From NCBI GenBank assembly GCA_040880185.1, contig JBBDIY010000044.1, positions 12,970 to 76,969 on the forward strand: DNA of 64,000 nt, in the 5' to 3' direction. Below are positions 1 to 19,313 of the stretch, piece after piece. This stretch comes from Paenibacillaceae bacterium. GTDB lineage: Bacteria > Bacillota > Bacilli > Paenibacillales > UBA4045. A model generated the notes under the pieces. It was not told where the DNA came from and did not search any database. It saw only the letters and a program-made list of their open reading frames with translations. Within the stretch, counting starts at the first letter, position 1. Every line of letters starts with the position of its first letter. A program made the translations under genes and the position numbers.

Positions 1-73
1 CCCGATTAACGACCGCTATAGAAGGTAATAATAACTATAACTAAGATTGGTTAATCTGGAAGGGGTAATAAAT

Positions 74-1786
74 ATGAGTTTAAATATGTCCATTATGCTA
101 GTCCAGGTATTCTTTGCTGTGATCATCGGTTTATACTTCTTGGGTTTACTACGAGGGCAGCGATCGAGTCGCAGTGCGATCGATAGAGAATCTCGTAAAG
201 AGCTTGAGAAGCTACATAAGCTTAGAACGATTTCATTAACACAGCCTTTATCAGAAAGAACCAGACCTGCCTCACTATCCGATATTGTCGGTCAAGCAGA
301 GGGGTTGAAGGCGTTAAAGGCCGCTTTATGCGGTCCTAACCCACAGCATGTGTTGATTTATGGACCACCTGGCGTTGGGAAGACTGCAGCAGCACGGGTA
401 TTACTCCATGAAGCAAAGAAGAACCCATTATCTCCGTTTGGCTTGCAAGCGAAGTTTATCGAGATGGATGCGACGATTGCAAGATTTGATGAAAGGGGGA
501 TTGCTGATCCTCTCATTGGATCGGTACATGACCCGATTTACCAGGGGGCAGGTGCTATGGGTGTCGCTGGAATACCTCAACCTAAGCCTGGAGCGGTAAC
601 TAAAGCCCATGGTGGCATACTATTTATTGATGAAATCGGCGAATTACATCCGACTCAATTGAATAAGTTACTAAAGGTGCTAGAGGACCGTAAAGTACAT
701 CTAGAAAGTGCTTATTATAATTCTGAGGATGTTCATATTCCTCAGCATATTCATGATATATTCCAGAATGGACTACCTGCTGATTTCCGACTTGTAGGTG
801 CAACTACAAGGCACCCACATGAAATTCCTGCGGCATTACGATCACGCTGTATGGAAATTTTCTTCCGACCGTTAAAACCAGAAGAGATTGGGCTAATTGC
901 TAAGAAAGCCGTTCTAAAGATTGGATTTCCCGACAATAAGGAAGCTGTAGACATTGTGATGCAGTATGCAACGAATGGTCGGGAAGCAGTGAATGTCATC
1001 CAGTTAGCGTCGGGACTCGCCATGATGGAGAAGAGAGAGCAATTATCAGCAGCGGACGTAGAATGGGTTGTCAACAGTAGTCAAATTCCACCACGCTCTG
1101 AGAAGAAAATACACACAAGCCCTCAGATTGGTGTTGTGAACGGACTTGCAGTCTACGGTCCGAATATGGGTGCGATTCTGGAGATAGAAGTAACAGCTGT
1201 GCCTGCTTATCAAGCTGGTGCAGGTCGTATGACCTTGACAGGGGTCGTAGATGAAGAGGAACTTGGCAGTGGCAATAAAACCCTGAGACGAAAAAGTATG
1301 GCTCGTGGCTCTGTTGAGAATGTTATAACAGTCCTTGCTCAATATGGTTTACATACATCCGATTATGATCTGCACATCAACTTCCCAGGGGGTTTACCCA
1401 TTGATGGTCCTTCGGCTGGTATCTCTATGGCTACTGCTATAGCATCCGCTATTATGGGAATACCCATTGAGCATACGATAGCTCTAACAGGTGAATTGAG
1501 CATTCAGGGCAAGGTTAAACCAGTAGGTGGTGTTGCTGCCAAAATCGAAGCGGCGTGCCAGGCAGGAGTAAAGACGGTCTATATTCCAAGAGAAAACTGG
1601 CAGCACATGTTTGAAGATTACACGGACATGCGGATTATTAGGGTTGATTCATTAGATGAAGTATTCGACCAAGTACTCGGCACACGCACCTTCCCAAATC
1701 CATTGCAAAGCGCACTGAGCAGGGATGCAATACCAACAGCAACGATATCTATTTTACATGCAGGTTCAGTCCGAATGGAGCCCTAG
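74..1786 (+). CDS. lonB: ATP-dependent protease LonB (membrane-anchored Lon paralog)
   Basis: ORF 47..1786. SD GGAAGGGG lies 8 nt before the ATG at 74. It has an N-terminal hydrophobic helix, Walker A GPPGVGKT and a Lon protease serine motif DGPSAGISMATA. It sits directly upstream of lonA and engB, as in B. subtilis. Confidence 0.85.
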   Translation: MSLNMSIMLVQVFFAVIIGLYFLGLLRGQRSSRSAIDRESRKELEKLHKLRTISLTQPLSERTRPASLSDIVGQAEGLKALKAALCGPNPQHVLIYGPPGVGKTAAARVLLHEAKKNPLSPFGLQAKFIEMDATIARFDERGIADPLIGSVHDPIYQGAGAMGVAGIPQPKPGAVTKAHGGILFIDEIGELHPTQLNKLLKVLEDRKVHLESAYYNSEDVHIPQHIHDIFQNGLPADFRLVGATTRHPHEIPAALRSRCMEIFFRPLKPEEIGLIAKKAVLKIGFPDNKEAVDIVMQYATNGREAVNVIQLASGLAMMEKREQLSAADVEWVVNSSQIPPRSEKKIHTSPQIGVVNGLAVYGPNMGAILEIEVTAVPAYQAGAGRMTLTGVVDEEELGSGNKTLRRKSMARGSVENVITVLAQYGLHTSDYDLHINFPGGLPIDGPSAGISMATAIASAIMGIPIEHTIALTGELSIQGKVKPVGGVAAKIEAACQAGVKTVYIPRENWQHMFEDYTDMRIIRVDSLDEVFDQVLGTRTFPNPLQSALSRDAIPTATISILHAGSVRMEP

Positions 1787-1940
1787 TCTTTTGCTCGATC
1801 CCGTCGATCATACCCTCAATTGGTGTTTACAAAATAGTTTTGTTACAATTAACAATGTACGATGAAGTAGTCATCTGAATAGTGAATTACAAATCGGGCT
1901 CATAATGTTAATGGAGGTGCTATCAGTGGGATCTAACAGG

Positions 1941-4292
1941 ATGACGCGCCGTATTCCTTTATTGCCTTTAAGGGGATTACTTGTATATCCGAGCATGGTA
2001 CTCCACCTAGATGTTGGACGTGATAAATCGGTCAAGGCTTTAGAACATGCAATGGTGGATGATCATACGATTCTTCTTTGCTCTCAATCAGAGGTAAACA
2101 TCGAAGAACCGACTATGGACGACATTTACCGCGTAGGAACTATGGCCAAAATTCGTCAAATGCTCAAGCTACCGAATGGTACAATTCGTGTGCTTGTTGA
2201 AGGTGTCACTCGAGCTGAAATTGTTGAATATTTGCCTACGGAGGAATTTTTCGAAGTAGTAGTTAAACCGTTGCCAGAATTAGAGTTAGCTGATCCGGAG
2301 ATTGATGCGCTCATGCGCACGGTACTGAATCAGTTTGAGTACTATATTAATCTTTCGAAAAAAGTAACGCCTGAGACATTAGCTGCAGTGTCCGATATTG
2401 AAGAACCAGGACGGCTGGCTGATGTCATCTGCAGTCATTTATCCTTGAAAATTAAAGATAAGCAAGAAATTCTAGAGACAGTTGATGTTCGACTACGCCT
2501 GGAGAAGCTACTTGATATTCTGAATAATGAGCGCGAAGTTCTAGAGCTTGAACGCAAGATTAGTCAACGTGTCAAGAAACAGATGGAGAAAACACAGAAG
2601 GAATATTATTTGCGTGAACAGATGAAAGCGATCCAGAAGGAGTTAGGCGATAAAGAAGGACGTACTAGCGAAATTGAGGAGCTTCGGGCACAAGTCGAAG
2701 AGCTTACACTCAATGAAAAGGTTAAGGAGAAGATCGAGAAGGAAATCGATCGACTCGAGAGGATGCCGATTACCTCTGCAGAAGGGGCTGTTATTCGTAA
2801 TTATGTAGATTGGTTAATTGGATTGCCTTGGCATACGTCAACTGAAGATGATATGGATATTAAGAAAGCGGAAGATATTCTTGATGAAGATCATTACGGC
2901 TTAGAGAAGGCCAAGCAACGCGTTCTCGAATATTTGGCCGTTCAGCAGTTAGTTAAGAAATTAAAGGGACCTATTCTCTGCTTAGTAGGTCCGCCTGGTG
3001 TGGGTAAAACTTCTTTAGCTCGTTCTATTGCACGATCTCTAGGGCGTAAATTTGTTAGAATGTCACTGGGTGGCGTTCGAGATGAAGCTGAGATTAGAGG
3101 TCATCGCCGAACCTATGTGGGAGCAATGCCTGGTCGTATTATACAGGGGATGAAGAATGCTGGCTCCAACAATCCGGTTTTCTTGCTCGATGAGATCGAT
3201 AAGATGGCTATGGATTTCCGTGGTGATCCGTCTTCTGCTCTCTTAGAGGTGCTCGATCCAGAACAGAATAGTACATTTAGTGATCATTATATAGAGGTTC
3301 CCTTTGATTTATCCAATGTGATGTTTGTGACGACAGCGAATGCCGTTCATAACATTCCGCGCCCTTTATTGGATCGGATGGAGGTGCTCTATATTCCGGG
3401 TTATACCGAATTGGAGAAGCTACGAATCGCAGATATATATTTACTTCCGAAGCAGCGTAAAGATCATGGTCTGAATGAAGAACAATTACAGATGGACGAT
3501 GTCTCCATGCTCACGGTTATTCGAGAATATACCCGCGAAGCGGGTGTGCGTAACTTAGAACAACAAATTGCTACTCTATGTCGCAAGACAGCCAAGGAAG
3601 TAGTATCTGCACATTTAGTTGAGAAGGTTCTATATTCAGATCAAATTAAGGAGTACTTAGGACCACAGAAGTATCGTTATGGTATGGCAGAAGAGGAAGA
3701 TCAGATCGGTGCTGTAACTGGACTAGCTTGGACAGAGGTTGGTGGAGACACCCTCATCATTGAAGTAACCGTACTTCCAGGTACAGGGAAATTGACGTTA
3801 ACCGGCAAATTAGGTGATGTGATGAAGGAATCCGCCCAAGCGGCATTCAGTTATACGAGGTCTAGATCAATTCAACTGAACATTGATCCAGGTTTCCACG
3901 AGAAGAACGATATTCATATCCATATCCCAGAAGGTGCAATTCCTAAGGATGGACCATCTGCTGGAATCACAATGGCTACTGCGCTAATATCAGCATTAAC
4001 GAATAATCCGGTATCACGGCTTGTTGCCATGACAGGCGAGATCACACTTCGTGGGCGAGTTCTACCTATAGGTGGTCTCAAAGAAAAGGCGATGGCTGCT
4101 CATCGTGCAGGGATTAGAACGATTATTATTCCTAAAGATAATGAAAAGGATATCGATGACATTCCAGAGAGTGTAAGGAATGACCTGAAGTTTGTCGAAG
4201 TCATTCATATGGATCAGGTTCTTGATGAAGCACTGATTCATCCATTCCATCTGATTAAAGAACAGATCGCTATTGTAGGTGAACTCATATGA
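1941..4292 (+). CDS. lon: ATP-dependent protease Lon (LonA)
   Basis: ORF 1905..4292. It has a Lon N-domain start [15 protein letters not shown], Walker [10 protein letters not shown] and protease motif [14 protein letters not shown]. The start is uncertain: ATG 1941, or a GTG near 1926 after GGAGGTG. Confidence 0.95.
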
Positions 4293-4906
4293 ATCTGAAT
4301 ATTCACAATGCTGAGTTTCTGACTAGTGTTGCAACACTTTCACAATTACCTGAAGAAACCCTGCCAGAGATCGCTCTAGCAGGGCGTTCCAATGTAGGCA
4401 AGTCATCTTTAATTAATCGTATGCTCGGTCGTAAATCGATTGCAAAGATTAGTGGAACTCCGGGTAAGACGCAGATGTTAAACTATTATAACATTGACTC
4501 CCAGCTTTATTTGGTAGACTGCCCTGGGTACGGCTATGCTAAGGTCTCTCAAGTACAACGAAGACAATTCGGTAATCTAATAGAGAAGTATATGGTTAAG
4601 CGCGAGAAGCTTTGCTTAGTGCTACAATTGATAGATCTACGGCATGAGCCGTCCAAAGAGGACCTAAGTATGTTCTCCTGGTTGATTCACAATGGGATGA
4701 CTGTTTGTATTGTAGCTACGAAGGCTGACAAAATTCCGCGATCTCAATATCAGAAGCATCTGAAGATGATACGGAATGGTTTACATATGCCTGAACACAT
4801 TCCAATCATTCTGTTCTCATCAGTAACAAGCCAGGGTAAAGATGAATTATGGAGCTTTATCGAACAAACGATACAATTACAGGAGGAACAGCTAGTTAGT
4901 GATTGA
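4289..4906 (+). CDS. engB: Ribosome-biogenesis GTPase EngB/YsxC
   Basis: G1 motif [12 protein letters not shown], DxPGYG and TKADK motifs. It overlaps the lon stop by 4 nt. The lon-engB synteny is conserved. Confidence 0.9.
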
Positions 4907-5029
4907 ATTTACGGTCTAAACTGGTTTATTTGCTTGTTTTTTAAGTTTTTTCACTATGGGCAGACCAGCTTTCGATGGTGTATAATAAATGGCATGTAAT
5001 GGCTTACTATATGGAATTGAGGAGATATT

Positions 5030-5617
5030 ATGGCTCAGCGGTTAGCGACAGAATATGTCAAAGCCAGTCTGACATTAACGGAACCCGAAATGATCCAATT
5101 AGAACGAATGCTGATGGACCAAGCCATTGTTTTTCACGTGAAGGTACTAGACAATGGAAACCAACAATTGGTTTTCCATGAAGATGGTGGAGATGAGATC
5201 ATCATCAGCTTTGAGCACAGAGCAGACAAATATGTTTCCGAAGGTTCATATCGATTGAATTCAATACCACTCGCCAATCTCATGAGAAAGGCTGTATCTG
5301 TATTCAAAGGAAATGCCATTGTCAATCGCATATATTCTAACTTCACAATGGTTTATTATTATGAATATGGTGTTGTAGTCAAGATTGTTGAGATGAATGA
5401 ACAATATCAGAAAACGATTTATGAATATAAGAATACGGTTGGGCGGCTTGAACAGCTCTTTAATGACCAACAGATTGAGTATGAGATCACGATTGTACGA
5501 GATGAAATCAATCGATTGCTTGATCAACGTAACCATATTCAAGAGGTATTCGAACGTACTAAGATTGATACATTATTAACGGAGTTGACATACCGTTTGT
5601 TCGTACTTGAAGCATAA
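5030..5617 (+). CDS. Hypothetical protein (195 aa, no recognised motif)
   Basis: Long ORF with SD GAGGAG 7 nt upstream of the ATG, followed by an intrinsic terminator. I do not recognise any domain. Confidence 0.5.
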   Translation: MAQRLATEYVKASLTLTEPEMIQLERMLMDQAIVFHVKVLDNGNQQLVFHEDGGDEIIISFEHRADKYVSEGSYRLNSIPLANLMRKAVSVFKGNAIVNRIYSNFTMVYYYEYGVVVKIVEMNEQYQKTIYEYKNTVGRLEQLFNDQQIEYEITIVRDEINRLLDQRNHIQEVFERTKIDTLLTELTYRLFVLEA

Positions 5618-5642
5618 ATGGAAGTCCACCGAATCGATCGTG

Positions 5643-5667
5643 GAGGCCTAGTAGGCCTCTTCTTTTT
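5643..5667 (+). terminator. Rho-independent terminator
   Basis: GAGGCCT-AGT-AGGCCTC hairpin followed by TTCTTTTT. Confidence 0.6.
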
Positions 5668-5870
5668 AGGAGGTCTATCTTCTCAAAAAATAACTATTGC
5701 ATTTCCGGTCAAGAGATGTTATTTTTAGTTTCGTTGACAATATTATAGGAACCAGGATTCACTCATGACATTGGATGTTGCGAGAGATTTTTCCCTCGAG
5801 CAGTGAATGACGTAGGTCCTAGCGGATGAAATTTCCAAACATTTTATTCCTAGGAAGGGGGAACCGGAAG

Positions 5871-6272
5871 ATGGAATACTCTACTTTCGGAAGGCACGTT
5901 GCTGTTGATACTTGGGGGGTAAACTTCGATCGCCTGAATGACGCGGAATGGTTACAAGATCAGATGATTGAAGCGGCAGAAATTTCTGGCGCTACTGTGA
6001 TGTCCGTACAGGCTAAACAATTCGAACCACAAGGAGCAACTGTTCTAGTACTACTGTCAGAAAGTCATCTCTCCATACACACGTATCCGGAGAAGGGCTT
6101 TGCTGCGATTGATTGCTATACGTGTGGAGATACAGTTGACCCACAAACGGCAATCGATTATCTGGTATCTGTATTAGAACCAGAGCATGTACACGCCAAG
6201 AAGTTGGTTCGTGGCATGGGAGAAATCCAAGTCGAAACACCAGAGATCAAACAATTGTTATACACTCGCTAA
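5871..6272 (+). CDS. speD: S-adenosylmethionine decarboxylase proenzyme (pyruvoyl type)
   Basis: It aligns by eye with B. subtilis SpeD (GRHV...WGC/V.FD.LND, self-cleavage motif SESHLSIHTYPE, CYTCGD). SD GAAGGGGGA precedes the ATG at 5871, within ORF 5826..6272. Confidence 0.88.
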   Translation: MEYSTFGRHVAVDTWGVNFDRLNDAEWLQDQMIEAAEISGATVMSVQAKQFEPQGATVLVLLSESHLSIHTYPEKGFAAIDCYTCGDTVDPQTAIDYLVSVLEPEHVHAKKLVRGMGEIQVETPEIKQLLYTR

Positions 6273-6305
6273 TACAAATGAACAATGGAATAGGAAACAT
6301 TAGAA

Positions 6306-6338
6306 CCGCGGGATTGGTCATACCCCCCGCGGTTTTTT
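6306..6338 (+). terminator. Rho-independent terminator
   Basis: CCGCGGG ... CCCGCGG stem followed by TTTTTT. Confidence 0.75.
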
Positions 6339-6409
6339 AATGTTTATTTTCACAACAAATGTACTTCAAGGAATATTCATATTCTAACAGGGAAATGCTT
6401 GGTTCTATA

Positions 6410-6418
6410 TGTTATAAT
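6410..6418 (+). promoter_or_regulatory. Candidate extended -10 (TGtTATAAT) for the hem operon
   Basis: TGTTATAAT lies about 50 nt upstream of the hemA start. No good -35 is visible. Confidence 0.35.
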
Positions 6419-6467
6419 GAATCGATAAAAAAGATCTAACTCTGTCGGAAAGGCAGGTGAAAGACCG

Positions 6468-7865
6468 ATGCACATCATTGCTGTTAGTTTAAATCATCAT
6501 ACTGCACCTGTAGAAGTACGTGAGAAATTCACCTTCTCCGACGAAAGACTTCCAGAAGCGCTACTACGTTTGAAACAGACGAAGGGCATTCTTGAAGGTG
6601 TAATCGTGTCAACCTGTAACCGAACTGAGATCTATGCAGTCGTTGATCGCCTACATATGTGTGGGCATTATATACGTGGCTTTATGGAGAATTGGTTCGG
6701 GATTTCACGGGATCAATTTGTCCCTTATTTAAGCATTCATGAAGATCAGGAAGCAATCAAACACTTATTCCGCGTAACCTGCGGGTTGGATTCTATGATG
6801 ATTGGTGAAACACAGATACTAGGTCAGGTCCGTAGCTCCTTCTTAACAGCTCAGAAGGAAACAGCAACGGGAACCTTCTTCAATATGTTATTCAAGCAAG
6901 CCATTACGCTTGCCAAGAAGGTCCATACCGAGACAGGCATCGGCGAAAGCGCGGTTTCGGTCAGCTATGCGGCTGTTGAGTTGGGCAAACGTATATTCGG
7001 GAATTACCATCAGAAGAGTGTATTGATTATTGGTGCGGGGAAGATGGGCGAGTTAACTGTCAAGCATCTACATGCTAATGGTGCAAGTAAAGTAATCGTG
7101 GCTAATCGGACGTTAGCTCGCGCAGAGGAATTGGCTGCTCGGTGGAATGGTATTGCATGTTCAATGGAGGATGTTAAGGACATATTAACCGAACATGGTG
7201 TAGATATTATCATCAGCTCTACGGGAGCAGAAGGCTATGTCTTATCGAAAGACCAGATGGATGAAGTGATGAAAGCAAGGTCGAATAAACCATTATTCGT
7301 AATCGACATTGCTGTTCCTCGAGACTTTGACCCGGAAATTGCTAGGAGTGAACAGGTATTCCTATACGATATGGATGATTTACAGGCTATTGTAGAAGGT
7401 AATGTCAATCTTCGTCGTCGTGAAGGTGAGAAGGTCGAGGATCTGATCAAGCAAGAAATAACTGTATTCCAACAATGGTATAGGCTGCTTGGTGTTAGTC
7501 CAGCGATTCGAGCCCTGCAAGAGAAGGCTGCTCTTATTCATAAAGAAACCATGGATAGTTTAATTAAGAAGCTCCCAGACCTTGAAGAACGCGAATTAAA
7601 AGTCATACACAAATTAAGTAAGAGCATTGTAAATCAGATGCTACATGATCCGATATTACGCGTTAAGGAATTAGCCGTTGAACGTCATGGTGATGATGCG
7701 ATTAAGATGTTCTCCCATCTATTTGCCTTGGAGGAATGGGTTGAAGAGCACGATGCATTACCGGAAGATGCTTTGTTAGAACCCGAAGTTAATAAAGCTG
7801 AACAGTCGGATCCTGTGAGAAGGATATCTATACCGAAGCTGCAAAGCTTGCCGGCGCACTCGTAG
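6468..7865 (+). CDS. hemA: Glutamyl-tRNA reductase
   Basis: N-terminus (M)HIIAVSLNHHTAPVEVREKF, active-site STCNRTEIY and NAD fold IGAGKMG. It is the first gene of a hemAXCDBL-like cluster. Confidence 0.95.
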   Translation: MHIIAVSLNHHTAPVEVREKFTFSDERLPEALLRLKQTKGILEGVIVSTCNRTEIYAVVDRLHMCGHYIRGFMENWFGISRDQFVPYLSIHEDQEAIKHLFRVTCGLDSMMIGETQILGQVRSSFLTAQKETATGTFFNMLFKQAITLAKKVHTETGIGESAVSVSYAAVELGKRIFGNYHQKSVLIIGAGKMGELTVKHLHANGASKVIVANRTLARAEELAARWNGIACSMEDVKDILTEHGVDIIISSTGAEGYVLSKDQMDEVMKARSNKPLFVIDIAVPRDFDPEIARSEQVFLYDMDDLQAIVEGNVNLRRREGEKVEDLIKQEITVFQQWYRLLGVSPAIRALQEKAALIHKETMDSLIKKLPDLEERELKVIHKLSKSIVNQMLHDPILRVKELAVERHGDDAIKMFSHLFALEEWVEEHDALPEDALLEPEVNKAEQSDPVRRISIPKLQSLPAHS

Positions 7866-7879
7866 GAGGTGGCTAGGCA

Positions 7880-8695
7880 ATGATTACGAAAAGCTGGTTT
7901 TTCGATGCGATGCTGTATATATATGCCCTGAGCCTTTTGTTTACTTTCTCTGATTTTATTCAACGGAATCAGAGGGCTAAATGGATGGGCACAGGGCTAC
8001 TTGTTTCTGTATGGGTCATGCAAACCATTCTGATGGTGAATCAGTTCATCCACTCTGGACAAATTATTGCTTTCTCGATTTTTGATTCACTATTTCTTTT
8101 CTCATGGCTGTTGATTACACTATCATTGATTTTATCACTTCTAGCACGCATTGAATTTGTATTATTCTTCGTTAGTTTAGCCGGATTTATCGTTGCTGCC
8201 ATTGCTTTCTTCAGCGATGAGACCATCTCTCCAATTGCTGCACACTGGGAGGTACGTGATGAATTACTATTCATCCATATTTCATTAGCCATAGGTAGTT
8301 ATGTAGCTTTCTTCTGTAGTGCAATGTTCTCAGGCATGTTATTATTCCTACATACCGGATTAAAGAAGAAGCGTTATTCAGATATGATCAGACGTATGCC
8401 AAGTCTTGACCATATCCAACAATATGCGACGAGAGCTGTGGTCGTGGGCACTCCCCTTCTTTTGCTCTCATTGATATTAGGGATCATCTGGATTTTCCTA
8501 GAGGATGAGCGAACCTTACTGCTTGATGTGAAGGTTGTATTCTCTATCCTCATAATAATGTTGTATGGTATGTATATATGGAAGCACGTTGCAGCTAAGA
8601 CAACTTGGCGTCGAATGGCAAGCTTGAATCTTGTTGCGTTCTCATTGGTATTACTCAACTATTTAACCTCAAATTGGTTGTCGAATTTTCATTAA
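7880..8695 (+). CDS. hemX: HemX / cytochrome c assembly (CcsA-like) membrane protein
   Basis: Polytopic membrane protein immediately after hemA, matching the position of B. subtilis hemX. Confidence 0.8.
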   Translation: MITKSWFFDAMLYIYALSLLFTFSDFIQRNQRAKWMGTGLLVSVWVMQTILMVNQFIHSGQIIAFSIFDSLFLFSWLLITLSLILSLLARIEFVLFFVSLAGFIVAAIAFFSDETISPIAAHWEVRDELLFIHISLAIGSYVAFFCSAMFSGMLLFLHTGLKKKRYSDMIRRMPSLDHIQQYATRAVVVGTPLLLLSLILGIIWIFLEDERTLLLDVKVVFSILIIMLYGMYIWKHVAAKTTWRRMASLNLVAFSLVLLNYLTSNWLSNFH

Positions 8696-11993: not shown

Positions 11994-12986
11994 ATGGCAT
12001 TTCCATTATCCCGACTTAGAAGAACGAGAGGCACTACCATGCTACGTAATATGGTTCGTGAGCATGCAGTGTCCGTCCACGATTTAGTATATCCCTTGTT
12101 CATTACAGAGGGCACGAATATTCGTAATGAGATATCATCAATGCCAGGTGTATATCATTATTCACTCGATCGGTTGAATGAAGAGATAGATGAGGTTGTT
12201 AAACTTGGTGTTCAGGCAGTCTTATTATTTGGAATACCCGATAATAAGGATGAATGTGGTAGTTCAGCATTCGATGAGGATGGTATCGTTCAGAGGGCAA
12301 TTAGACAAATTAAGCGTCAGCATGAGGATCTGTTAGTTATCGCGGATACATGTTTATGTGAATTTACGGATCATGGGCATTGTGGTGTCGTTAAGCAAGA
12401 TGCACGAACTCAGCAAGCTTATATTGATAATGACGAATCACTTGAGCTATTAGTACAGACCGCAGTATCGCAAGCAAGAGCGGGTGCTGATATTATTGCT
12501 CCATCCAATATGATGGATGGATTTGTACAGGAGATTCGTGTTGGTTTAGATGATGCTGGATTCGATCGGGTTCCGATTATGTCATATGCAGTTAAATATG
12601 CTTCTGCATTCTACGGTCCATTCCGAGAAGCTGCTAATTCTGCACCGCAATTCGGAGATCGTAAGACGTATCAGATGGATTCAGCTAATATTAGGGAAGC
12701 ACTAAGAGAGGCAGAATCAGATGTTATCGAAGGAGCTGATATGCTTATTGTTAAGCCTGCACTGGCATATATGGATGTCATCCGTACAGTCAGAGAAAAC
12801 TTCGATCTACCTGTTGTTGCGTACAACGTGAGCGGAGAATATGCGATGGTTAAGGCTGCCGCATCGCAAGGGTGGATTGATGAGAAGGCTATTGTTATGG
12901 AGACGATGGTCGGGTTTAAACGTGCTGGAGCTGATATAATCATTACCTACTTCGCTAAGGATGTTGCAGGGTGGCTCCAAGCCTAA
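11994..12986 (+). CDS. hemB: Porphobilinogen synthase (ALA dehydratase)
   Basis: RLRR...R.MVRE start, Zn-site [14 protein letters not shown], and Schiff-base lysine context [12 protein letters not shown]. Confidence 0.95.
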
Positions 12987-13722: not shown

Positions 13723-15024
13723 ATGAAAGAAACTACGCAGCGTCAGGATTCACGGTCTAAGGAAGCTTTTGCTGAAGCATTGCAATACATACCTGGTGGT
13801 GTGAATAGTCCTGTACGAGCGTTTCGGTCTGTTGGCTTGACACCTTATTATGTTGAACGTGGTGAAGGGTCTAGAATATATGACATTGATGGAAATTCTT
13901 ATATTGATTATATAGGCTCATGGGGACCCCTAATTCTTGGACATGCTCATCCTGCAATTATTCAAGCTATACAGCAAACTGCTGCGAAAGGAACCAGCTT
14001 CGGTGCACCAACACAATTAGAAACTGAGATGGCTAAGCTCGTTTGTGAGCGTGTCCCTTCCATTGAGATGGTACGTATGGTGAACTCTGGAACGGAAGCT
14101 ACTATGAGTGCTCTACGCTTAGCTAGAGGCTTCACTGGTCGCAGTAAAATCGTCAAATTTGAAGGCTGTTATCATGGTCATGCAGATTCTTTGTTGATCA
14201 AAGCTGGATCGGGTGTAGCGACATTAGCTTTACCAGATAGCCCCGGTGTTCCCGAAGCGGTTGCTGCTCAGACGATTACAATTCCTTATAATGACCTGGA
14301 AGCAGTGCATTTAGTATTCGAGAAGTTTGGTGAAGAGATTGCAACAGTCATTGTTGAGCCGATAGCGGGTAATATGGGCGTTGTACCACCTGCAAGTGGA
14401 TTTCTCGAAGGCTTACGAAAGATCACTAGCGAGTATGGTAGCTTGCTCATCTTTGATGAGGTTATGACTGGCTTTCGTGTTGATATTCATAGCGCCCAAG
14501 GGTTATATGGGGTAACTCCAGATATCACCTGTCTAGGTAAGATTATTGGTGGCGGATTGCCTGTGGGAGCTTATGGGGGAAGAAGAGACATCATGGAGAA
14601 AATGGCCCCTGCTGGTCCGATCTATCAAGCGGGCACCTTATCAGGCAATCCACTGGCTATGGCTGCGGGATACACAACATTAAACATCCTTGGTCAACCA
14701 GGTGTCTATGAATCGCTGGAACGGAAATCTGCTCGTCTTGAGCAAGGATTTACGGATAACGCAAGGGAACGTGGTATTGCCTGTACGATCAATCGAGTAG
14801 GCTCAATGGTATGCCCATTCTTCACGGATATGAAGGTTACGAACTATGAGTCCGCGAAGACTTCGGACTTGCAGCGTTTCAATCGGTACTTTGCAACATT
14901 GCTTGATCTTGGCATTAGTGTTGCTCCATCTCAGTTTGAGGGGATGTTCGTCTCTTTGGCGCATACAGATGAAGATATTGAGGCAACGATTGAAGCTCAT
15001 CGGAATGCGCTCAAGGGTCTATAA
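13723..15024 (+). CDS. hemL: Glutamate-1-semialdehyde 2,1-aminomutase
   Basis: [28 protein letters not shown], and the PLP lysine context [11 protein letters not shown]. Confidence 0.95.
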
Positions 15025-15041: not shown

Positions 15042-15419
15042 TTACTGAAAATAAACCAGTTTCAAATCATCATAGGGTTTTAGAACATGATCAAGAACTG
15101 CAACAATTCGAATACCCCCTTCGTTCAAATCGTCCGGAGGGGGTATTCGTCGAATAATATACTCCTCCTCATTGCATACAAGTGTTAGCATTTCATTAGA
15201 TAGTAGCGGGTTGATCAGACTGAATATAAGGTAATCCCCCTGATGAATGCCGAGATGCTCTAAACCATCGTCTCCCATCGATAAAGCGAATGAAGCATTC
15301 ATAAATTTTGATATTTGTAGATGTGGTTTTTCCGACCAATCCTCTCCATGGATGTGAATGGGGAAATAGCGCATCGAAAACCCGCGTGAAATAATTGGAA
15401 TGATCTTAAATGTCATCAT
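15042..15419 (-). CDS. Stand-alone S24 (LexA/UmuD C-terminal-like) domain protein with substituted catalytic dyad
   Basis: By-eye alignment to B. subtilis LexA-CTD gives three matches. IPIISRG matches IPVLGRV. SMGDDGLEHLGIHQGDYLIF matches IMGDSMIDAGILDKDYVIV (Ser to Asp). EEEYIIRRI matches DEATVKRF (Lys to Arg). The gene overlaps the immA stop by 14 nt. Confidence 0.45.
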   Translation of the reverse strand: MMTFKIIPIISRGFSMRYFPIHIHGEDWSEKPHLQISKFMNASFALSMGDDGLEHLGIHQGDYLIFSLINPLLSNEMLTLVCNEEEYIIRRIPPPDDLNEGGIRIVAVLDHVLKPYDDLKLVYFQ

Positions 15420-16035
15420 TAGCCTCTTTTATATAACCGAGAACACCTTTTTCATGACAATATAACATTGTGGATGATCCTGTTGGAATACAATACTCGA
15501 TGTGATGTATGCGTTTGAATTGATCAGAAGCCTCCATTAATGCAGAAAATTTGTTATTGTACGATTGCTGAAGAATTTGTTTGGAATATTGCTTTAGTCT
15601 CTTTTTGGCGATAGATGGTGTTACGTTGAATATCTCGGAAACATAATCAATTGCAGCTTGCATCTGATTTGGGATGTTTAGTTGGGTTAGCATGAAGCTT
15701 GGTATGCAGAAGTGCATAGCGAAATTACTTGCCTTACTCTCTTGAAATTCGATCAATGAATTGGAAAGCAAAAGTTGGTTTCCAGAATGCCTTAGAATAT
15801 GGCACATTTCATGACCGAAATCCTCCCATTGCTGTTGTGCGGATTGTCGTTCATCCAGTACAATGCTTGCCTTTCCTTGACGTTCAATTGCATGACTTGT
15901 AACAGGGAAAAAGTATACCCAAATGTTATATTTAGACGCTATAGTCATAATGTCCAAATCTTCTGGATGCTGGATGTTAATGTGTTGATAAAAAGAGAGA
16001 ATCCAGTCCTCCAACGGTGTGAAAATATAATCCAT
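15406..16035 (-). CDS. immA: ImmA/IrrE-family zinc metallopeptidase (anti-repressor protease, XkdA-like)
   Basis: HEXXH motif FGHEMCHILRH. It sits immediately downstream of an XRE repressor on the same strand, the classic ImmR-ImmA arrangement. Confidence 0.8.
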   Translation of the reverse strand: MDYIFTPLEDWILSFYQHINIQHPEDLDIMTIASKYNIWVYFFPVTSHAIERQGKASIVLDERQSAQQQWEDFGHEMCHILRHSGNQLLLSNSLIEFQESKASNFAMHFCIPSFMLTQLNIPNQMQAAIDYVSEIFNVTPSIAKKRLKQYSKQILQQSYNNKFSALMEASDQFKRIHHIEYCIPTGSSTMLYCHEKGVLGYIKEANDDI

Positions 16036-16108
16036 AATGAATACCTCCTTTTATGAGAATGTATGTTCTATTTTTAGAAAAAAAGAAAAGCCTTAACGGC
16101 TAAGATAC

Positions 16109-16462
16109 TTATTCTTGTATATCGTTCGGATTTCTTCCATTCTCCCTCTGTTTGATAATTTCCCAGATCTTCCTAAGTTCTTCCCTCCGCTCCTCCGGTG
16201 CGTCGAGTAATTCCTTGAACCACAAACCCAAAGTTGGATCAGCCATCTCCTCTGAAACTAAATCACCCTCAGCTTTTCCTAGCAAGTAATCTGTGCTGAC
16301 GTTGAAAATCTCGGCCATCTTCTGCAAAGTATCCAACGATGGCTGACGATACCCCGATTCATATCCAGCATATGTGCTCTTGGCCATGCCTATTCGATTG
16401 GCTAAATATTGCATGGACCAATTATTATTTTTCCGTAACTCAGCTAATCGCACAGCAATCAC
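16109..16462 (-). CDS. XRE-family HTH repressor (ImmR/Xre-like)
   Basis: The N-terminal HTH_3 domain is RLAELRKNNNWSMQYLANRIGMAKSTYAGYESGYRQPSLDTLQKMAEIFNVSTDYLLG. It uses a GTG start and is divergent from the rightward phage genes. Confidence 0.85.
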   Translation of the reverse strand: MIAVRLAELRKNNNWSMQYLANRIGMAKSTYAGYESGYRQPSLDTLQKMAEIFNVSTDYLLGKAEGDLVSEEMADPTLGLWFKELLDAPEERREELRKIWEIIKQRENGRNPNDIQE

Positions 16463-16510
16463 GCAGAAACCGCCTATTCAGAAGGAATTATTTAACTTGT
16501 CCTTATAATA

Positions 16511-16613
16511 TCGCATAACGCGAACGAAAAGCAATTATTATTAAAAAAAACTTGATTTTTTCGCGAAACGCGTACAATATATAGGAATACATGTTCGCAT
16601 TTTGAATACATGT
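16511..16613. promoter_or_regulatory. Divergent promoter/operator region of the immunity switch
   Basis: The rightward candidate is TTGATT (16552-16557) and TACAAT (16573-16578), but the spacer is only 15 nt. CGCGAA-containing motifs repeat at 16516-16527 and 16559-16572. GAATACATGT is a 10-bp direct repeat at 16585-16594 and 16604-16613. Confidence 0.35.
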
Positions 16614-16651
16614 GAGATAAATTCAGCTCAAGTATACGGAAGGAGTCCTTT

Positions 16652-17002
16652 ATGGAAAATCAATTTGGAATAGCTAGAGTAGCCGTATTATTGCACGATC
16701 GTTCTCGTTTAAGCTCTCGTAGATATGTAGGTGACTATACAGCATCTGATATTCTCATCGATCTAGATCGAGCAATTAGATTAGCACAGTTGACTGAACG
16801 GCAATCTCAAGTGATTAAATTCGTGTTTACATTAGACATGACACAAGAAGCCGCAGCAATAGCCATGCAAGTTACCCAAGTGGCCGTGAGTAAGACATTG
16901 AATGGGGCCTGCAAACGAATCGCTAACGTTTTTCAAAACTGGGATTACAATGACTACTCTAAGTTAGCAGAAGGAGGGAGCAATATATGGAACGAACAAT
17001 AG
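16652..17002 (+). CDS. Sigma-70 region-4-like HTH protein (candidate phage late-gene activator, Xpf-like)
   Basis: LTERQSQVIKFVFTLDMTQEAAAIAMQVTQVAVSKTLNGACKRI resembles ECF sigma region 4. SD GGAAGGAG lies upstream. Confidence 0.55.
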   Translation: MENQFGIARVAVLLHDRSRLSSRRYVGDYTASDILIDLDRAIRLAQLTERQSQVIKFVFTLDMTQEAAAIAMQVTQVAVSKTLNGACKRIANVFQNWDYNDYSKLAEGGSNIWNEQ

Positions 17003-17538
17003 GAAGGGAGCATAGACCAGCATTATCTCGAGAAATGATGGATCGGGAGCTCATCCGTATTCCACGAGAACAAAGAATACAACAAGTGGAGCAAATAATA
17101 GGAACGTATATGAATGACTATGGACTTAGACCGCGTAATCAAGATTTGGAGTTTCTTGCAGAGGTGATATTGTATGAGGAATTATCCGATTCTGATCCTC
17201 ACAAGGTAGCACACAATGATTATCCGATTCTAAGCTTGACACAACTGAAACGTCGGATGTACGGCCGCGGGAATGCGGCGACTACAAATATGCAGGGGGA
17301 AGCAAGGCTAGAGATGGAATGGAGTGGTGTACAATCAACTAGATTATCGAGACACAATGAATTAGCTTCGGACGGGCATACATATAAACCGCCTATTCGT
17401 CGGGCACGAAGTTTATATGAACATATGCTTATGGATGCCAATACGGTATCAAGGAACAATGAACGATCAGAACAATATAGCAAGAATAGTGCTCCAGGTC
17501 AGGTGCACACTTATCATGTTTCGAAATTATTTTGCTGA
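16987..17538 (+). CDS. Hypothetical phage-associated protein (183 aa)
   Basis: The ORF overlaps the previous gene by 16 nt, and SD GGAGGGAG lies 6 nt before the ATG. No motif recognised. Confidence 0.5.
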   Translation: MERTIGREHRPALSREMMDRELIRIPREQRIQQVEQIIGTYMNDYGLRPRNQDLEFLAEVILYEELSDSDPHKVAHNDYPILSLTQLKRRMYGRGNAATTNMQGEARLEMEWSGVQSTRLSRHNELASDGHTYKPPIRRARSLYEHMLMDANTVSRNNERSEQYSKNSAPGQVHTYHVSKLFC

Positions 17539-17661
17539 CTAGGTTATATAATTTGTGGTTTCTGGTTCTAAGATTGTAGATGGGTGTTTAACCGCGGTGC
17601 TCATCCTTGAAGAAACTTCGACGGGAGCTTCTTTCCAAATATGAAGAGGAGGAACAAACAA

Positions 17662-17854
17662 ATGGCGCAAATTACAGGACAGTATGCAGAGCTTTGGGTA
17701 GAAGTGAATAGTGTAAGAACGAAAGCAGCGGGGTTAAGGAATTGGTTCAGCTTCAATTGATGCGGATATTGCAACGCCATATGATGATCTACATGGTATT
17801 ACAGCCACATTCACCGGCTCCGATGCATTAACTAAATCCACGGTTACTGTCTAA
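17662..17854 (+). pseudogene. Frameshifted small phage gene
   Basis: A strong SD AAGAGGAGGAA precedes the ATG at 17662. The frame stops after 32 aa (17758-17760). The +1 frame then continues to 17854 (GSASIDADIATPYDDLHGITATFTGSDALTKSTVTV). Confidence 0.4.
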
Positions 17855-18044
17855 TAGTTTTAATCGCTCGAGATGGCAGCGTTGGATGATCAGCACTGCA
17901 CTTAGTATTATTGCACTTTGTATCACTGTGATTAGTTTGTTCTGGAAAGCGGTTGCCTAGCATTGAATAAACGGATGTAAGTGTCAGTGAAAGAAACGAA
18001 AGAATATATTATTATAAACTTGGTTCGTGGGGGGGTGAATTAGT

Positions 18045-18815
18045 ATGCCAGAACGGAAGTTCCGTAGGTTTACATTAGCTGAATATTCCGGATATCTGAA
18101 GTCGTACGCGAATAAAGTTAAATTCTCTGAGGTTCATGTACATCATACTTGGAAACCCACAATAGCTAATTATCGCAAGCAGAACGATAAAGAATCATTG
18201 ATTCTTGGTATGTGGCGGTATCACACTGCAACCAGAGGCTGGGCTGATATAGCCCAGCATATCTCCATCGATCCAGACGGCTTTATCTGGGAAGGACGCC
18301 CATTGTTAAGTCCTCCTGTATCTGCAACAGGTCATAATGATTCAGACAGCGACGGAATTCATCCATTCATGTTTGAGATGATAGGTGATTTTGATTTAGG
18401 GAAGGAGAGATTAGAAGGAGCCCAATTAGAAACGGTTCTGGGGGTAGTGGCACTTATTCAAGATGTCTGGAAGCTATCTGATCAGCAAATTCGCTTTCAT
18501 AGGGAAATGCAAACAGGTAAGTCTTGTCCAGGAACGAGCATAGATAAACAATGGTTTTTGGAGAGGGTCCGAGAGATACGACAAGACACAACCAAGGTGA
18601 AGCAAGAAGATCAGGTCGCTCCCACAAAAGAAATTGTATTCCCAATCATTCAAGAGACGGTTAACATCCACATTAACGGTAATCCCGGTCCAATGGGATA
18701 TTTAATTAATGGAGTCACATACGCACCACTAAGGCCGATCGCGGAACAACTGAAAGCTAGTATCGAATGGGATCCTAATACCAGGACAGCATCGATTACA
18801 AGAGAAGGTGTATAG
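18045..18815 (+). CDS. N-acetylmuramoyl-L-alanine amidase endolysin (amidase_2/PGRP type) with a C-terminal copper-amine-oxidase-N-like domain
   Basis: VHVHHTW...GWADIAQHISIDPDGFIWEGRP...SCPG are amidase_2 hallmarks. The C-terminal sequence INGVTYAPLRPIAEQLKASIEWDPNTRTASI resembles that repeat family. Confidence 0.85.
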   Translation: MPERKFRRFTLAEYSGYLKSYANKVKFSEVHVHHTWKPTIANYRKQNDKESLILGMWRYHTATRGWADIAQHISIDPDGFIWEGRPLLSPPVSATGHNDSDSDGIHPFMFEMIGDFDLGKERLEGAQLETVLGVVALIQDVWKLSDQQIRFHREMQTGKSCPGTSIDKQWFLERVREIRQDTTKVKQEDQVAPTKEIVFPIIQETVNIHINGNPGPMGYLINGVTYAPLRPIAEQLKASIEWDPNTRTASITREGV

Positions 18816-19083
18816 TATGGAGCTTACTCCTTATGAGCTGACTATTGTTCCTATCATCGTGGCTCTAGTCCGTGTTCTTAGAATGTCAGGTGTGCCACCG
18901 CGCTGGCTTCCTCTTTGTGCAATTGCCTTGGGTATGATTAGTGGATTTGTATATATTGCTCCGGAAAACCCGAAGTTGGGTTTACTTTCTGGCATTGTCA
19001 TGGGTTTGATAGCAATTGGTGTTTGGTCTAGCGTTACGAATACGATAAAAGAGGACAGTACAACCTCCGGAATTGGCAAATAG
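18808..19083 (+). CDS. Phage holin (two or three TM helices)
   Basis: This 91-aa protein has hydrophobic segments IVPIIVALVRVL, LPLCAIALGMISGFVYI and GIVMGLIAIGVW and a charged C-tail. It overlaps the endolysin stop by 8 nt. Confidence 0.65.
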   Translation: MYSMELTPYELTIVPIIVALVRVLRMSGVPPRWLPLCAIALGMISGFVYIAPENPKLGLLSGIVMGLIAIGVWSSVTNTIKEDSTTSGIGK

Positions 19084-19101
19084 CCATTCCGGATTTTTTT
19101 T
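19066..19101 (+). terminator. Rho-independent terminator
   Basis: TCCGGAATTGGC / GCCATTCCGGA stem (one bulge) followed by T8. Confidence 0.75.
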
Positions 19102-19130
19102 GAACCGAGGTTCATTTTCTTATTACAGTG

Positions 19131-19313
19131 GGAATTTGAGAGTAACGGTAATGATGAGTAGAAGTAGGTGACCAAAGGAAGAAACTTCCGTTAGGAGATG
19201 GAAACTAGGTTACTTATGTCAAATAGCGGAGGTTTTTTCCGTTAAAACTGGAGTTTGAGAGTAATGAGGAGCAGTGGCAGGTGGCTAACGGAAGATGCTT
19301 CCGCTACTGGATT
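19131..19313. repeat. Two diverged direct repeat units, each ending in a GGAAG-N3-CTTCC hairpin, carrying TAACGGAA/TTCCGTTA motifs
   Basis: Unit A (19131-19199) and unit B (19250-19313) align over most of their length apart from a 6-nt gap (GGAaTTTGAGAGTAA...AGGTG...GGAAGA..CTTCCG.TA). The offset is 119 bp. Confidence 0.6.

Follow-up and report, generated by a model that had tools for sequence, protein, structure and literature searches.

What does a LexA-like protein without catalytic residues do in an operon with an ImmA-type protease? The question is raised by three minus-strand genes on contig JBBDIY010000044.1 of a Paenibacillaceae bacterium, within a stretch of 64,000 nucleotides (nt; contig positions 12,970 to 76,969) that was analysed as a whole and is called the window here. 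Coordinates are those of the window unless another locus is named. The genes of the operon run in the order Xre, ImmA and a third gene, and a check of the open reading frames (ORFs) found all three where the sequence-only reading of this DNA had placed them. The module belongs to the ImmR/ImmA (Xre/COG2856) class, and its repressor, protease, gene order and location all fit. The module adds, as a third subunit that is conserved but optional, a protein descended from an autopeptidase of the LexA/UmuD kind; this homologue of family S24, itself no peptidase, is referred to below as the pseudo-S24 protein. As to its function, we tentatively favour, while stopping short of calling it probable, a non-catalytic sensor of the activated RecA filament that would regulate the cleavage of Xre by ImmA.

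The operon and the fold of its third protein

The first gene of the operon (16109-16462, minus strand) encodes an Xre/ImmR-type helix-turn-helix (HTH) repressor of 117 aa. HTH_3 was matched at residues 6-60 (E=4.8e-19) and the Pfam scan returned no other domain, so that the repressor does lack a C-terminal cleavage domain, as had been proposed; about 55 residues form a tail after the HTH. Further matches of Xre were phrog_8 (E=1.2e-23), an RstR-family model (68 bits) and capH (E=1.8e-10). The second gene (15406-16035, minus strand) encodes a 209-aa zinc metalloprotease of the ImmA/IrrE family (M78, COG2856). Its assignment, including the HEMCH motif, was upheld by Peptidase_M78 (E=2.6e-12), by the phrog_87 metallo-protease profile (E=1.4e-23) and by GHEMCH read in the translation. 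The closest named homologues were annotated as 'ImmA/IrrE family metallo-endopeptidase' and 'PBSX protein XkdA', and no match to the window ImmA was found among the sequenced phages of INPHARED.

The same arrangement, an Xre-type repressor followed by a COG2856/M78 protease with HEXXH in one operon, is found in ICEBs1 ImmR/ImmA, PBSX Xre/XkdA, Listeria MpaR, Deinococcus DdrO/IrrE and CapH/CapP of the cyclic oligonucleotide-based antiphage signalling systems (CBASS). Cleavage of the repressor by ImmA is predicted for the present module from what is expected of this class. Also as in the class, the window operon is divergent from genes for a sigma-like protein, an endolysin and a holin, and its relatives have an integrase or recombinase adjacent to the module or PBSX-like tail genes divergent from it. 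Unlike the systems of this class described in the papers searched, the module carries after ImmA a conserved non-catalytic S24-like gene, which overlaps ImmA in some loci.

As called, the third ORF (15042-15419, minus strand) encodes 125 aa and overlaps the end of the ImmA gene, including its stop codon, by 14 nt. These values of the sequence-only reading hold for the ORF, but not for the likely gene. The second ATG, at 15416, is the likely start, because the first Met falls in this column in 78 of the 82 members of the family alignment, the NCBI annotation of the protein is a 124-aa form (P0001), and a Shine-Dalgarno GAGG sits 6 nt upstream. From this start the protein would have 124 aa and the overlap with ImmA would be 11 nt.

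Searches with the single sequence of the third protein were nearly blind. A word-indexed search of 5.8 billion proteins returned 2 relatives, phmmer over 1.84 billion representatives returned 6 matches, and phmmer against the PDB gave one match only, which was irrelevant. The family emerged only by profile iteration, when a profile from the first matches recovered about 85 clusters of 90-153 aa (121-153 aa for full-length members). The hosts were Paenibacillus, Brevibacillus, Alkalihalobacillus, Caldalkalibacillus, Anaerobacillus, Laceyella and Bacillus. A few members had been automatically annotated as 'S24 family peptidase' or 'LexA', and two members that were searched against INPHARED had no match among sequenced phages. 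The closest relative (P0002, 68% protein identity) is encoded on a metagenome contig (locus L045), where the gene occupies the same site and frame and is likewise convergent with hemL. Between the window copy and the L045 copy the Nei-Gojobori ratio of nonsynonymous to synonymous substitution (dN/dS) was 0.11, at a saturated dS of about 1.5, and by this measure the third gene is clearly under purifying selection. Given this ratio and the family of about 85 clusters, we judge that the third ORF is not a chance reading frame.

The window protein alone gave E=0.14 and 12.3 bits against Pfam Peptidase_S24 (PF00717) and did not reach the gathering cut-off of 23.3. PF00717 was matched by five of eight tested family members (best E=1.3e-7), and some relatives carry a precomputed PF00717 match. 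Against the PDB, a profile of eight sequences matched UmuD and LexA chains over the whole S24 domain (best E=0.002), its sole other match being a borderline, unrelated chain (E=0.98), and the 82-sequence profile matched only LexA chains. By hhalign, the 82-sequence alignment matched LexA, UmuD and lambda CI with 94% probability and E=1.4e-7; the LexA and UmuD segments of the reference sequences agree with PDB chains.

The AlphaFold2 (AF2) model built from the 82-sequence alignment had a mean predicted local distance difference test score (pLDDT) of 87.3 and a predicted template modelling score (pTM) of 0.81. It superseded an earlier model from 7 sequences (pLDDT 76.7), for which LexA structures were also the top matches but with a template modelling (TM) score of only 0.43. 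In a Foldseek search of the PDB the top 24 matches were all LexA, lambda CI or UmuD (probability 0.99-1.00). The best of them was LexA bound to the RecA filament (8s7g_A, TM 0.64/0.65), which matched over the entire 124-residue chain, including the cleavage-site region. Among the viral models of BFVD, every good match was a CI or LexA-like repressor. In the model, the N-terminal arm takes the docked position that the arm has in cleavable, RecA-bound LexA, the form seen in the best structural matches (8s7g_A, 8trg_I and 1jhe_A). By sequence profiles and modelling, the third protein has the LexA/UmuD (S24) fold, with the arm of the cleavage-site region included. Profile searches, hhalign and the structure search could each have spoken against the S24 beta-barrel of the sequence-only reading, and all of them returned the S24 fold.

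Both catalytic residues are absent from this fold. LexA S119 (UmuD S60) was placed opposite Gly52 of the motif D50-D51-G52-L53 by HMMER and hhalign, and LexA K156 (UmuD K97) opposite Arg90, in the same register in all three sequence alignments. The loss of the pair had been noticed from the letters alone, and the replacement of Lys by Arg had been read correctly. The replacement of Ser by Asp was one residue out of register, as the Ser aligns with Gly52 and not with Asp51; the window protein has Ser at neither residue 51 nor residue 52. Across the family, the Ser position was Gly in 81 of 82 members, the remaining one having Ser but still Arg at the Lys position, and the Lys position was Arg in 82 of 82. 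Judged by the alignment, the Ser/Lys dyad is lost in all 82 members. Also invariant were D50, R104 and F19, and R82, E84, E101 and N102 were nearly so. In the N-terminal arm, K5, F18 and F19 were invariant or nearly invariant and G11 was found in 72 of 82 members.

Ala-Gly or Cys-Gly occurred within the first 35 residues of 39 of the 82 members, nearly always as Ala-Gly at aligned positions 10-11. The carriers of Ala-Gly belong mainly to a Brevibacillus clade, and the pair is aligned with the LexA cleavage site though the Ser/Lys dyad is gone; a separate protease might cut such members in trans. The window copy has neither AG nor CG in its first 35 residues and carries Ile10-Ser11 at the candidate cleavage position.

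With LexA, lambda CI and UmuD (MEROPS S24, PF00717) the protein shares the beta-barrel, the N-terminal arm, a GD..L motif and the RecA-contact pocket with an acidic residue. It differs from S24 peptidases in the family-wide Gly for Ser and Arg for Lys and, in the window copy, in the absence of an Ala-Gly or Cys-Gly site, and it differs from LexA and CI in having no HTH. In size and architecture, with no DNA-binding domain, it resembles UmuD. Unlike UmuD it has no umuC partner, its upstream neighbour always being ImmA, and no polymerase domain was found among the Pfam-annotated neighbours in L004, L006 and L008-L013. A UmuD function as a subunit of Pol V was ruled out for want of a polymerase partner at these loci. 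SipA of Streptococcus pyogenes, a pilus chaperone from the LexA/signal-peptidase clan that was among the weak fold matches of the model, likewise keeps the clan fold as a binding module and has lost the catalytic residues; it belongs to another subfamily with other partners and another biology, and it is not linked to an ImmA protease. A further non-catalytic example from the clan is the non-cleavable LexA of cyanobacteria, which is likewise not known to be linked to an ImmA protease.

Linkage of the third gene to ImmA

Gene neighbourhoods were surveyed at loci with visible upstream DNA, comprising 31 species genomes, 6 IMG/VR prophage contigs, and metagenome and isolate contigs. The third gene lay directly downstream of ImmA on the same strand at 31 of 31 genome loci and on 6 of 6 IMG/VR contigs, and the same was true of every metagenome or isolate contig. 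Triads of Xre, ImmA and an S24-like protein, which had been suggested as the thing to look for, therefore recur, and the third gene was intact beside ImmA in every related module examined. An 11-nt overlap of the two called genes occurs in L002 and L004; gaps of up to about 30 nt were seen elsewhere, and one of 320 nt in L025. Xre precedes ImmA directly or within about 1-2.5 kb, the exceptions being contigs that end short and a degenerate Laceyella element. In L052, three other genes lie between Xre and the ImmA-pseudo-S24 pair.

Among 33 distinct triads, the pairwise identities of Xre, ImmA and the third protein correlated at about 0.97, and on this basis the three-gene module appears to be inherited as a block. 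The comparison did not reveal which partner the third protein follows, as all three move together. A tyrosine integrase follows the module in L006, L012 and L022, and a large serine recombinase in L052 and L053. In Paenibacillus thalictri (L004), PBSX-like sheath and tube genes face or follow the module; ordinary chromosomal genes do so at other loci.

No ImmR/ImmA system with a free-standing, catalytically inactive S24-like protein as third partner was found described in the searchable literature, in agreement with the sequence-only reading, to which such a component was unfamiliar. In the account of Makarova et al. 2009, Xre-COG2856 three-component systems resembling toxin-antitoxin systems have a RelE- or PIN-type toxin as third gene, unlike the S24-like gene found here. 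The third gene had no toxin or PADLOC match either. A third component of the toxin-antitoxin type was ruled out, and the suggestion that the protein is the effector of an Xre-COG2856-type module found no support.

Other loci showed variations on the module. In several Brevibacillus genomes (L008-L011, positions 1-7414 of the loci), the genes divergent from the triad encode a protein of 152 aa, a BhlA-type holin, a protein of 573 aa and an RHS/YD-repeat toxin of about 1,840 aa, which suggests that the switch there controls lysis-linked toxin release rather than a phage. In Laceyella (L012/L013/L021, about positions 6490-8590), the pseudo-S24 and integrase genes are intact beside a truncated ImmA, called at 106-134 aa, and no Xre gene was detected in the upstream DNA of these loci; the third gene outlasts its partners in this decaying prophage. 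In L003 (positions 2815-5955), an operon of Xre, HipA_2, DUF3037 and ImmA is overlapped at ImmA by an unrelated 117-aa gene, and ImmA operons may thus recruit different small third partners.

RecA sensing and the competing explanations

Apart from self-cleavage, S24 domains are able to dimerise and to bind the activated RecA filament. The induction of ICEBs1 by DNA damage, which proceeds via ImmA, requires RecA, and the coupling step is not understood. In the reading that we favour, the Xre/ImmR-type repressor would shut off the divergent late genes for the sigma-like activator, the endolysin and the holin, and the ImmA-type zinc protease would inactivate Xre by cleavage. The third gene would be translationally coupled to ImmA. 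Its product would cut nothing itself and would serve as the DNA-damage sensor of the module: upon binding to the filament of RecA on single-stranded DNA it would alter the activity of ImmA, which would be recruited, activated or released from inhibition, and Xre would be cleaved only after DNA damage. Binding to RecA, direct contact with ImmA and the sign of the effect are the inferred parts of this reading. A more specific version, in which the pseudo-S24 protein, as a dedicated adaptor, fits into the groove of activated RecA filaments and turns ImmA on, is possible but rather unlikely.

A cryo-electron microscopy study of RecA with LexA, UmuD and lambda CI (PMC9926225) describes two shared RecA-binding determinants. 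One is a pocket for RecA F203, formed by LexA F111, L113 and V153 or UmuD Y52, L54 and F94, and the other is an acidic patch of LexA D150, D151 and E152 or UmuD D91 and E93. When these reported residues were followed through the 82-sequence profile alignment, LexA F111/L113/V153 mapped to F44/L46/Y87 of the window protein and D150/D151/E152 to E84/E85/E86. Position 44 was hydrophobic and position 46 was L, F, I or M in all 82 members; position 87 was F, Y or L in 77 of them, and position 84 was E or D in 80. In the pseudo-S24 family, the positions through which LexA contacts RecA are therefore conserved. A RecA sensor is the most economical reading of the S24 fold, the retained RecA-contact positions, the docked arm and the strict adjacency to ImmA with its occasional overlaps.

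Several observations weigh against it. Positions 85 and 86 are non-acidic in most members (Gly, Gln or Arg), and the frequent Gly at 85 followed by Gln or Arg resembles the D-G-E-F of UmuD. The 'RecA-contact' residues could also be kept for folding alone. LexA offers no equivalent of the family-specific conserved residues D50, R104, E101 and N102, which may point to another surface for binding a partner; taken with a RecA sensor, they suggest an additional, non-LexA interface, perhaps for ImmA. The third protein is no general requirement, since ICEBs1 responds to RecA without such a gene and a 52%-identical ImmA of Priestia taiwanensis sits in a two-gene Xre-ImmA module that lacks it; the third gene is optional, not universal, in ImmR/ImmA switches. 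Finally, the window copy is an atypical member. Together with P0002 it forms a divergent sub-branch, and the segment of about 15 residues opposite NKVELLPENSEFKPIVV of LexA is missing from both. The R82 of the family is Cys in the window copy and Trp in P0002, and E101-N102 are replaced by Gly-Gly and by Asp-His, respectively.

The pseudo-S24 protein could instead act on the repressor, supplying an oligomerisation domain in trans that binds the C-terminal tail of Xre and strengthens dimerisation or cooperative binding to the operator, with ImmA acting on the complex. LexA and CI dimerise and bind cooperatively through their S24 domain, non-cleaving S24 domains can act purely as oligomerisation modules, and Xre here consists of the HTH and its tail of about 55 residues only. 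The co-divergence of Xre with the third protein (r=0.97) would also agree with such a partnership. The gene arrangement argues the other way: the third gene always adjoins ImmA and not Xre, and overlaps ImmA in some loci, three genes part Xre from the ImmA-pseudo-S24 pair in L052, and Laceyella keeps the third gene with ImmA remnants and an integrase with no Xre detected upstream. Xre/ImmR repressors of similar size also work without a third protein, as in Priestia. The sequence-only reading had likened the operon to a LexA/CI-type repressor split into pieces; the resemblance stands, but no fused HTH and pseudo-S24 form was present among the profile matches, all of which had 90-153 aa. We consider a role as repressor partner improbable.

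We give similarly little credence to an action independent of ImmA, in which an uncleavable mimic of the LexA C-terminal domain would occupy the RecA groove or heterodimerise with the host LexA and so damp or re-tune the SOS response or competing CI-type prophages. This draws on the same fold and the same conservation of RecA contacts as the sensor, and on the arm that is predicted to be docked as in cleavable, RecA-bound LexA (8s7g_A, 8trg_I, 1jhe_A). The known modulation of RecA and SOS by mobile elements (PMC11841131) was also counted in its favour. It would leave the 100% linkage to ImmA and the occasional overlap unexplained, and among the 85 clusters the third gene was never found alone or in other operons.

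It is also unlikely that the protein works on ImmA without RecA, as a pseudo-substrate, inhibitor or chaperone whose arm or barrel contacts ImmA, tunes the basal activity or the stability of the protease and buffers spontaneous induction. A stoichiometric complex is suggested by the 11-nt overlap in L002 and L004 together with the co-divergence with ImmA as a block, and the conserved arm (K5, F18 and F19, with G11 in 72/82) and the Ala-Gly at positions 10-11 in 39/82, a possible remnant of protease recognition, would fit as well. Such a role gives no reason for retaining the RecA-contacting positions of LexA; moreover, the arm has no evident similarity to the Xre tail, and the window copy carries Ile-Ser and not Ala/Val-Gly at positions 10-11.

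That the third gene is a decaying relic or a spurious ORF with no present function here is very improbable, for although the 4-kb island is a remnant that contains no structural genes, and although a segment of 15 residues and three near-invariant residues are missing from the window copy, with a palindrome at the indel, the dN/dS of 0.11 against the 68%-identical relative at the same position and frame, the intact ORF with its Shine-Dalgarno sequence and the confident AF2 model all speak against decay.

ImmA/ImmR-type switches control many prophages of Gram-positive bacteria, integrative and conjugative elements (ICEs), tailocins and some defence systems. With three small proteins and RecA, the pseudo-S24 protein offers a testable candidate for the step that couples RecA to ImmA. 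If it were the adaptor, a physical connection from DNA damage to the ImmA/ImmR switches of prophages and ICEs would have been identified for the first time, and a LexA-like autopeptidase would have been turned into a pure sensor, with proteolysis handed to a metalloprotease. If it were a partner of the repressor or a damper of SOS instead, it would still add a new accessory layer of lysogeny control to Paenibacillus and Brevibacillus elements.

The island around the operon

The operon, which we read as the lysogeny (immunity) operon of a decayed prophage-like element, opens an island of about 4.1 kb (15042-19175) between hemL (13723-15024) and hemE/hemH (19488 onward). The divergent intergenic region between xre and the sigma-like gene (16463-16651) contains two exact direct repeats of GAATACATGT, at 16585-16594 and 16604-16613. 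The copies, 19 nt apart and each with the palindrome ACATGT, precede the sigma-like gene by 40-65 nt and are candidate operators of Xre.

Four genes follow on the plus strand. The first (16652-17002) encodes a small protein of 116 aa with sigma-70 region 4 only, which matched Sigma70_r4 (E=8.1e-07) and the phrog_3512 sigma factor profile (E=1.1e-17) and is a candidate Xpf-like late activator. The second (16987-17538) encodes a 183-aa phage protein that matched phrog_13088 (E=7.8e-28) and no Pfam or NCBIfam model. The third (18045-18815) encodes an endolysin, an N-acetylmuramoyl-L-alanine amidase of 256 aa with matches to Amidase_2 (E=7.9e-08), Cu_amine_oxidN1 and the phrog_1493 endolysin profile (E=8.9e-10), and the fourth (18808-19083) a 91-aa holin (phrog_1299, E=1.3e-16). 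The 507 bp between the phrog_13088 gene and the endolysin gene (17539-18044) contain no plus-strand ORF of at least 40 aa and no Rfam match; a late promoter for the sigma-like protein could lie there. The sigma-like and phrog_13088 genes were not found beside the triad in other loci, so that the cargo under control of the switch varies.

The island is a prophage-like remnant that keeps only the switch and the lysis cassette, as no capsid, tail, replication or integration genes were present among its annotated ORFs and no att-like direct repeats flank it. It seems to be old and maintained rather than freshly decayed, because the junction with hemL is also present in L045.

The pseudo-S24 gene contains, at 15109-15149, a strong hairpin with a 15-bp stem and a predicted RNA folding energy of -27.1 kcal/mol (z=-4.7). 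It spans the codons for residues 91-104 (RIPPP...EGGIR) and sits at the indel that distinguishes the window copy from L045 and from the family, the matching segment being missing from L045. The hairpin has no U-tract on either strand, and neither an Rfam match nor a terminator-pattern match was found within the island. Lying about 85 nt past the hemL stop codon, the hairpin could stabilise or terminate the convergent transcript of hemL.

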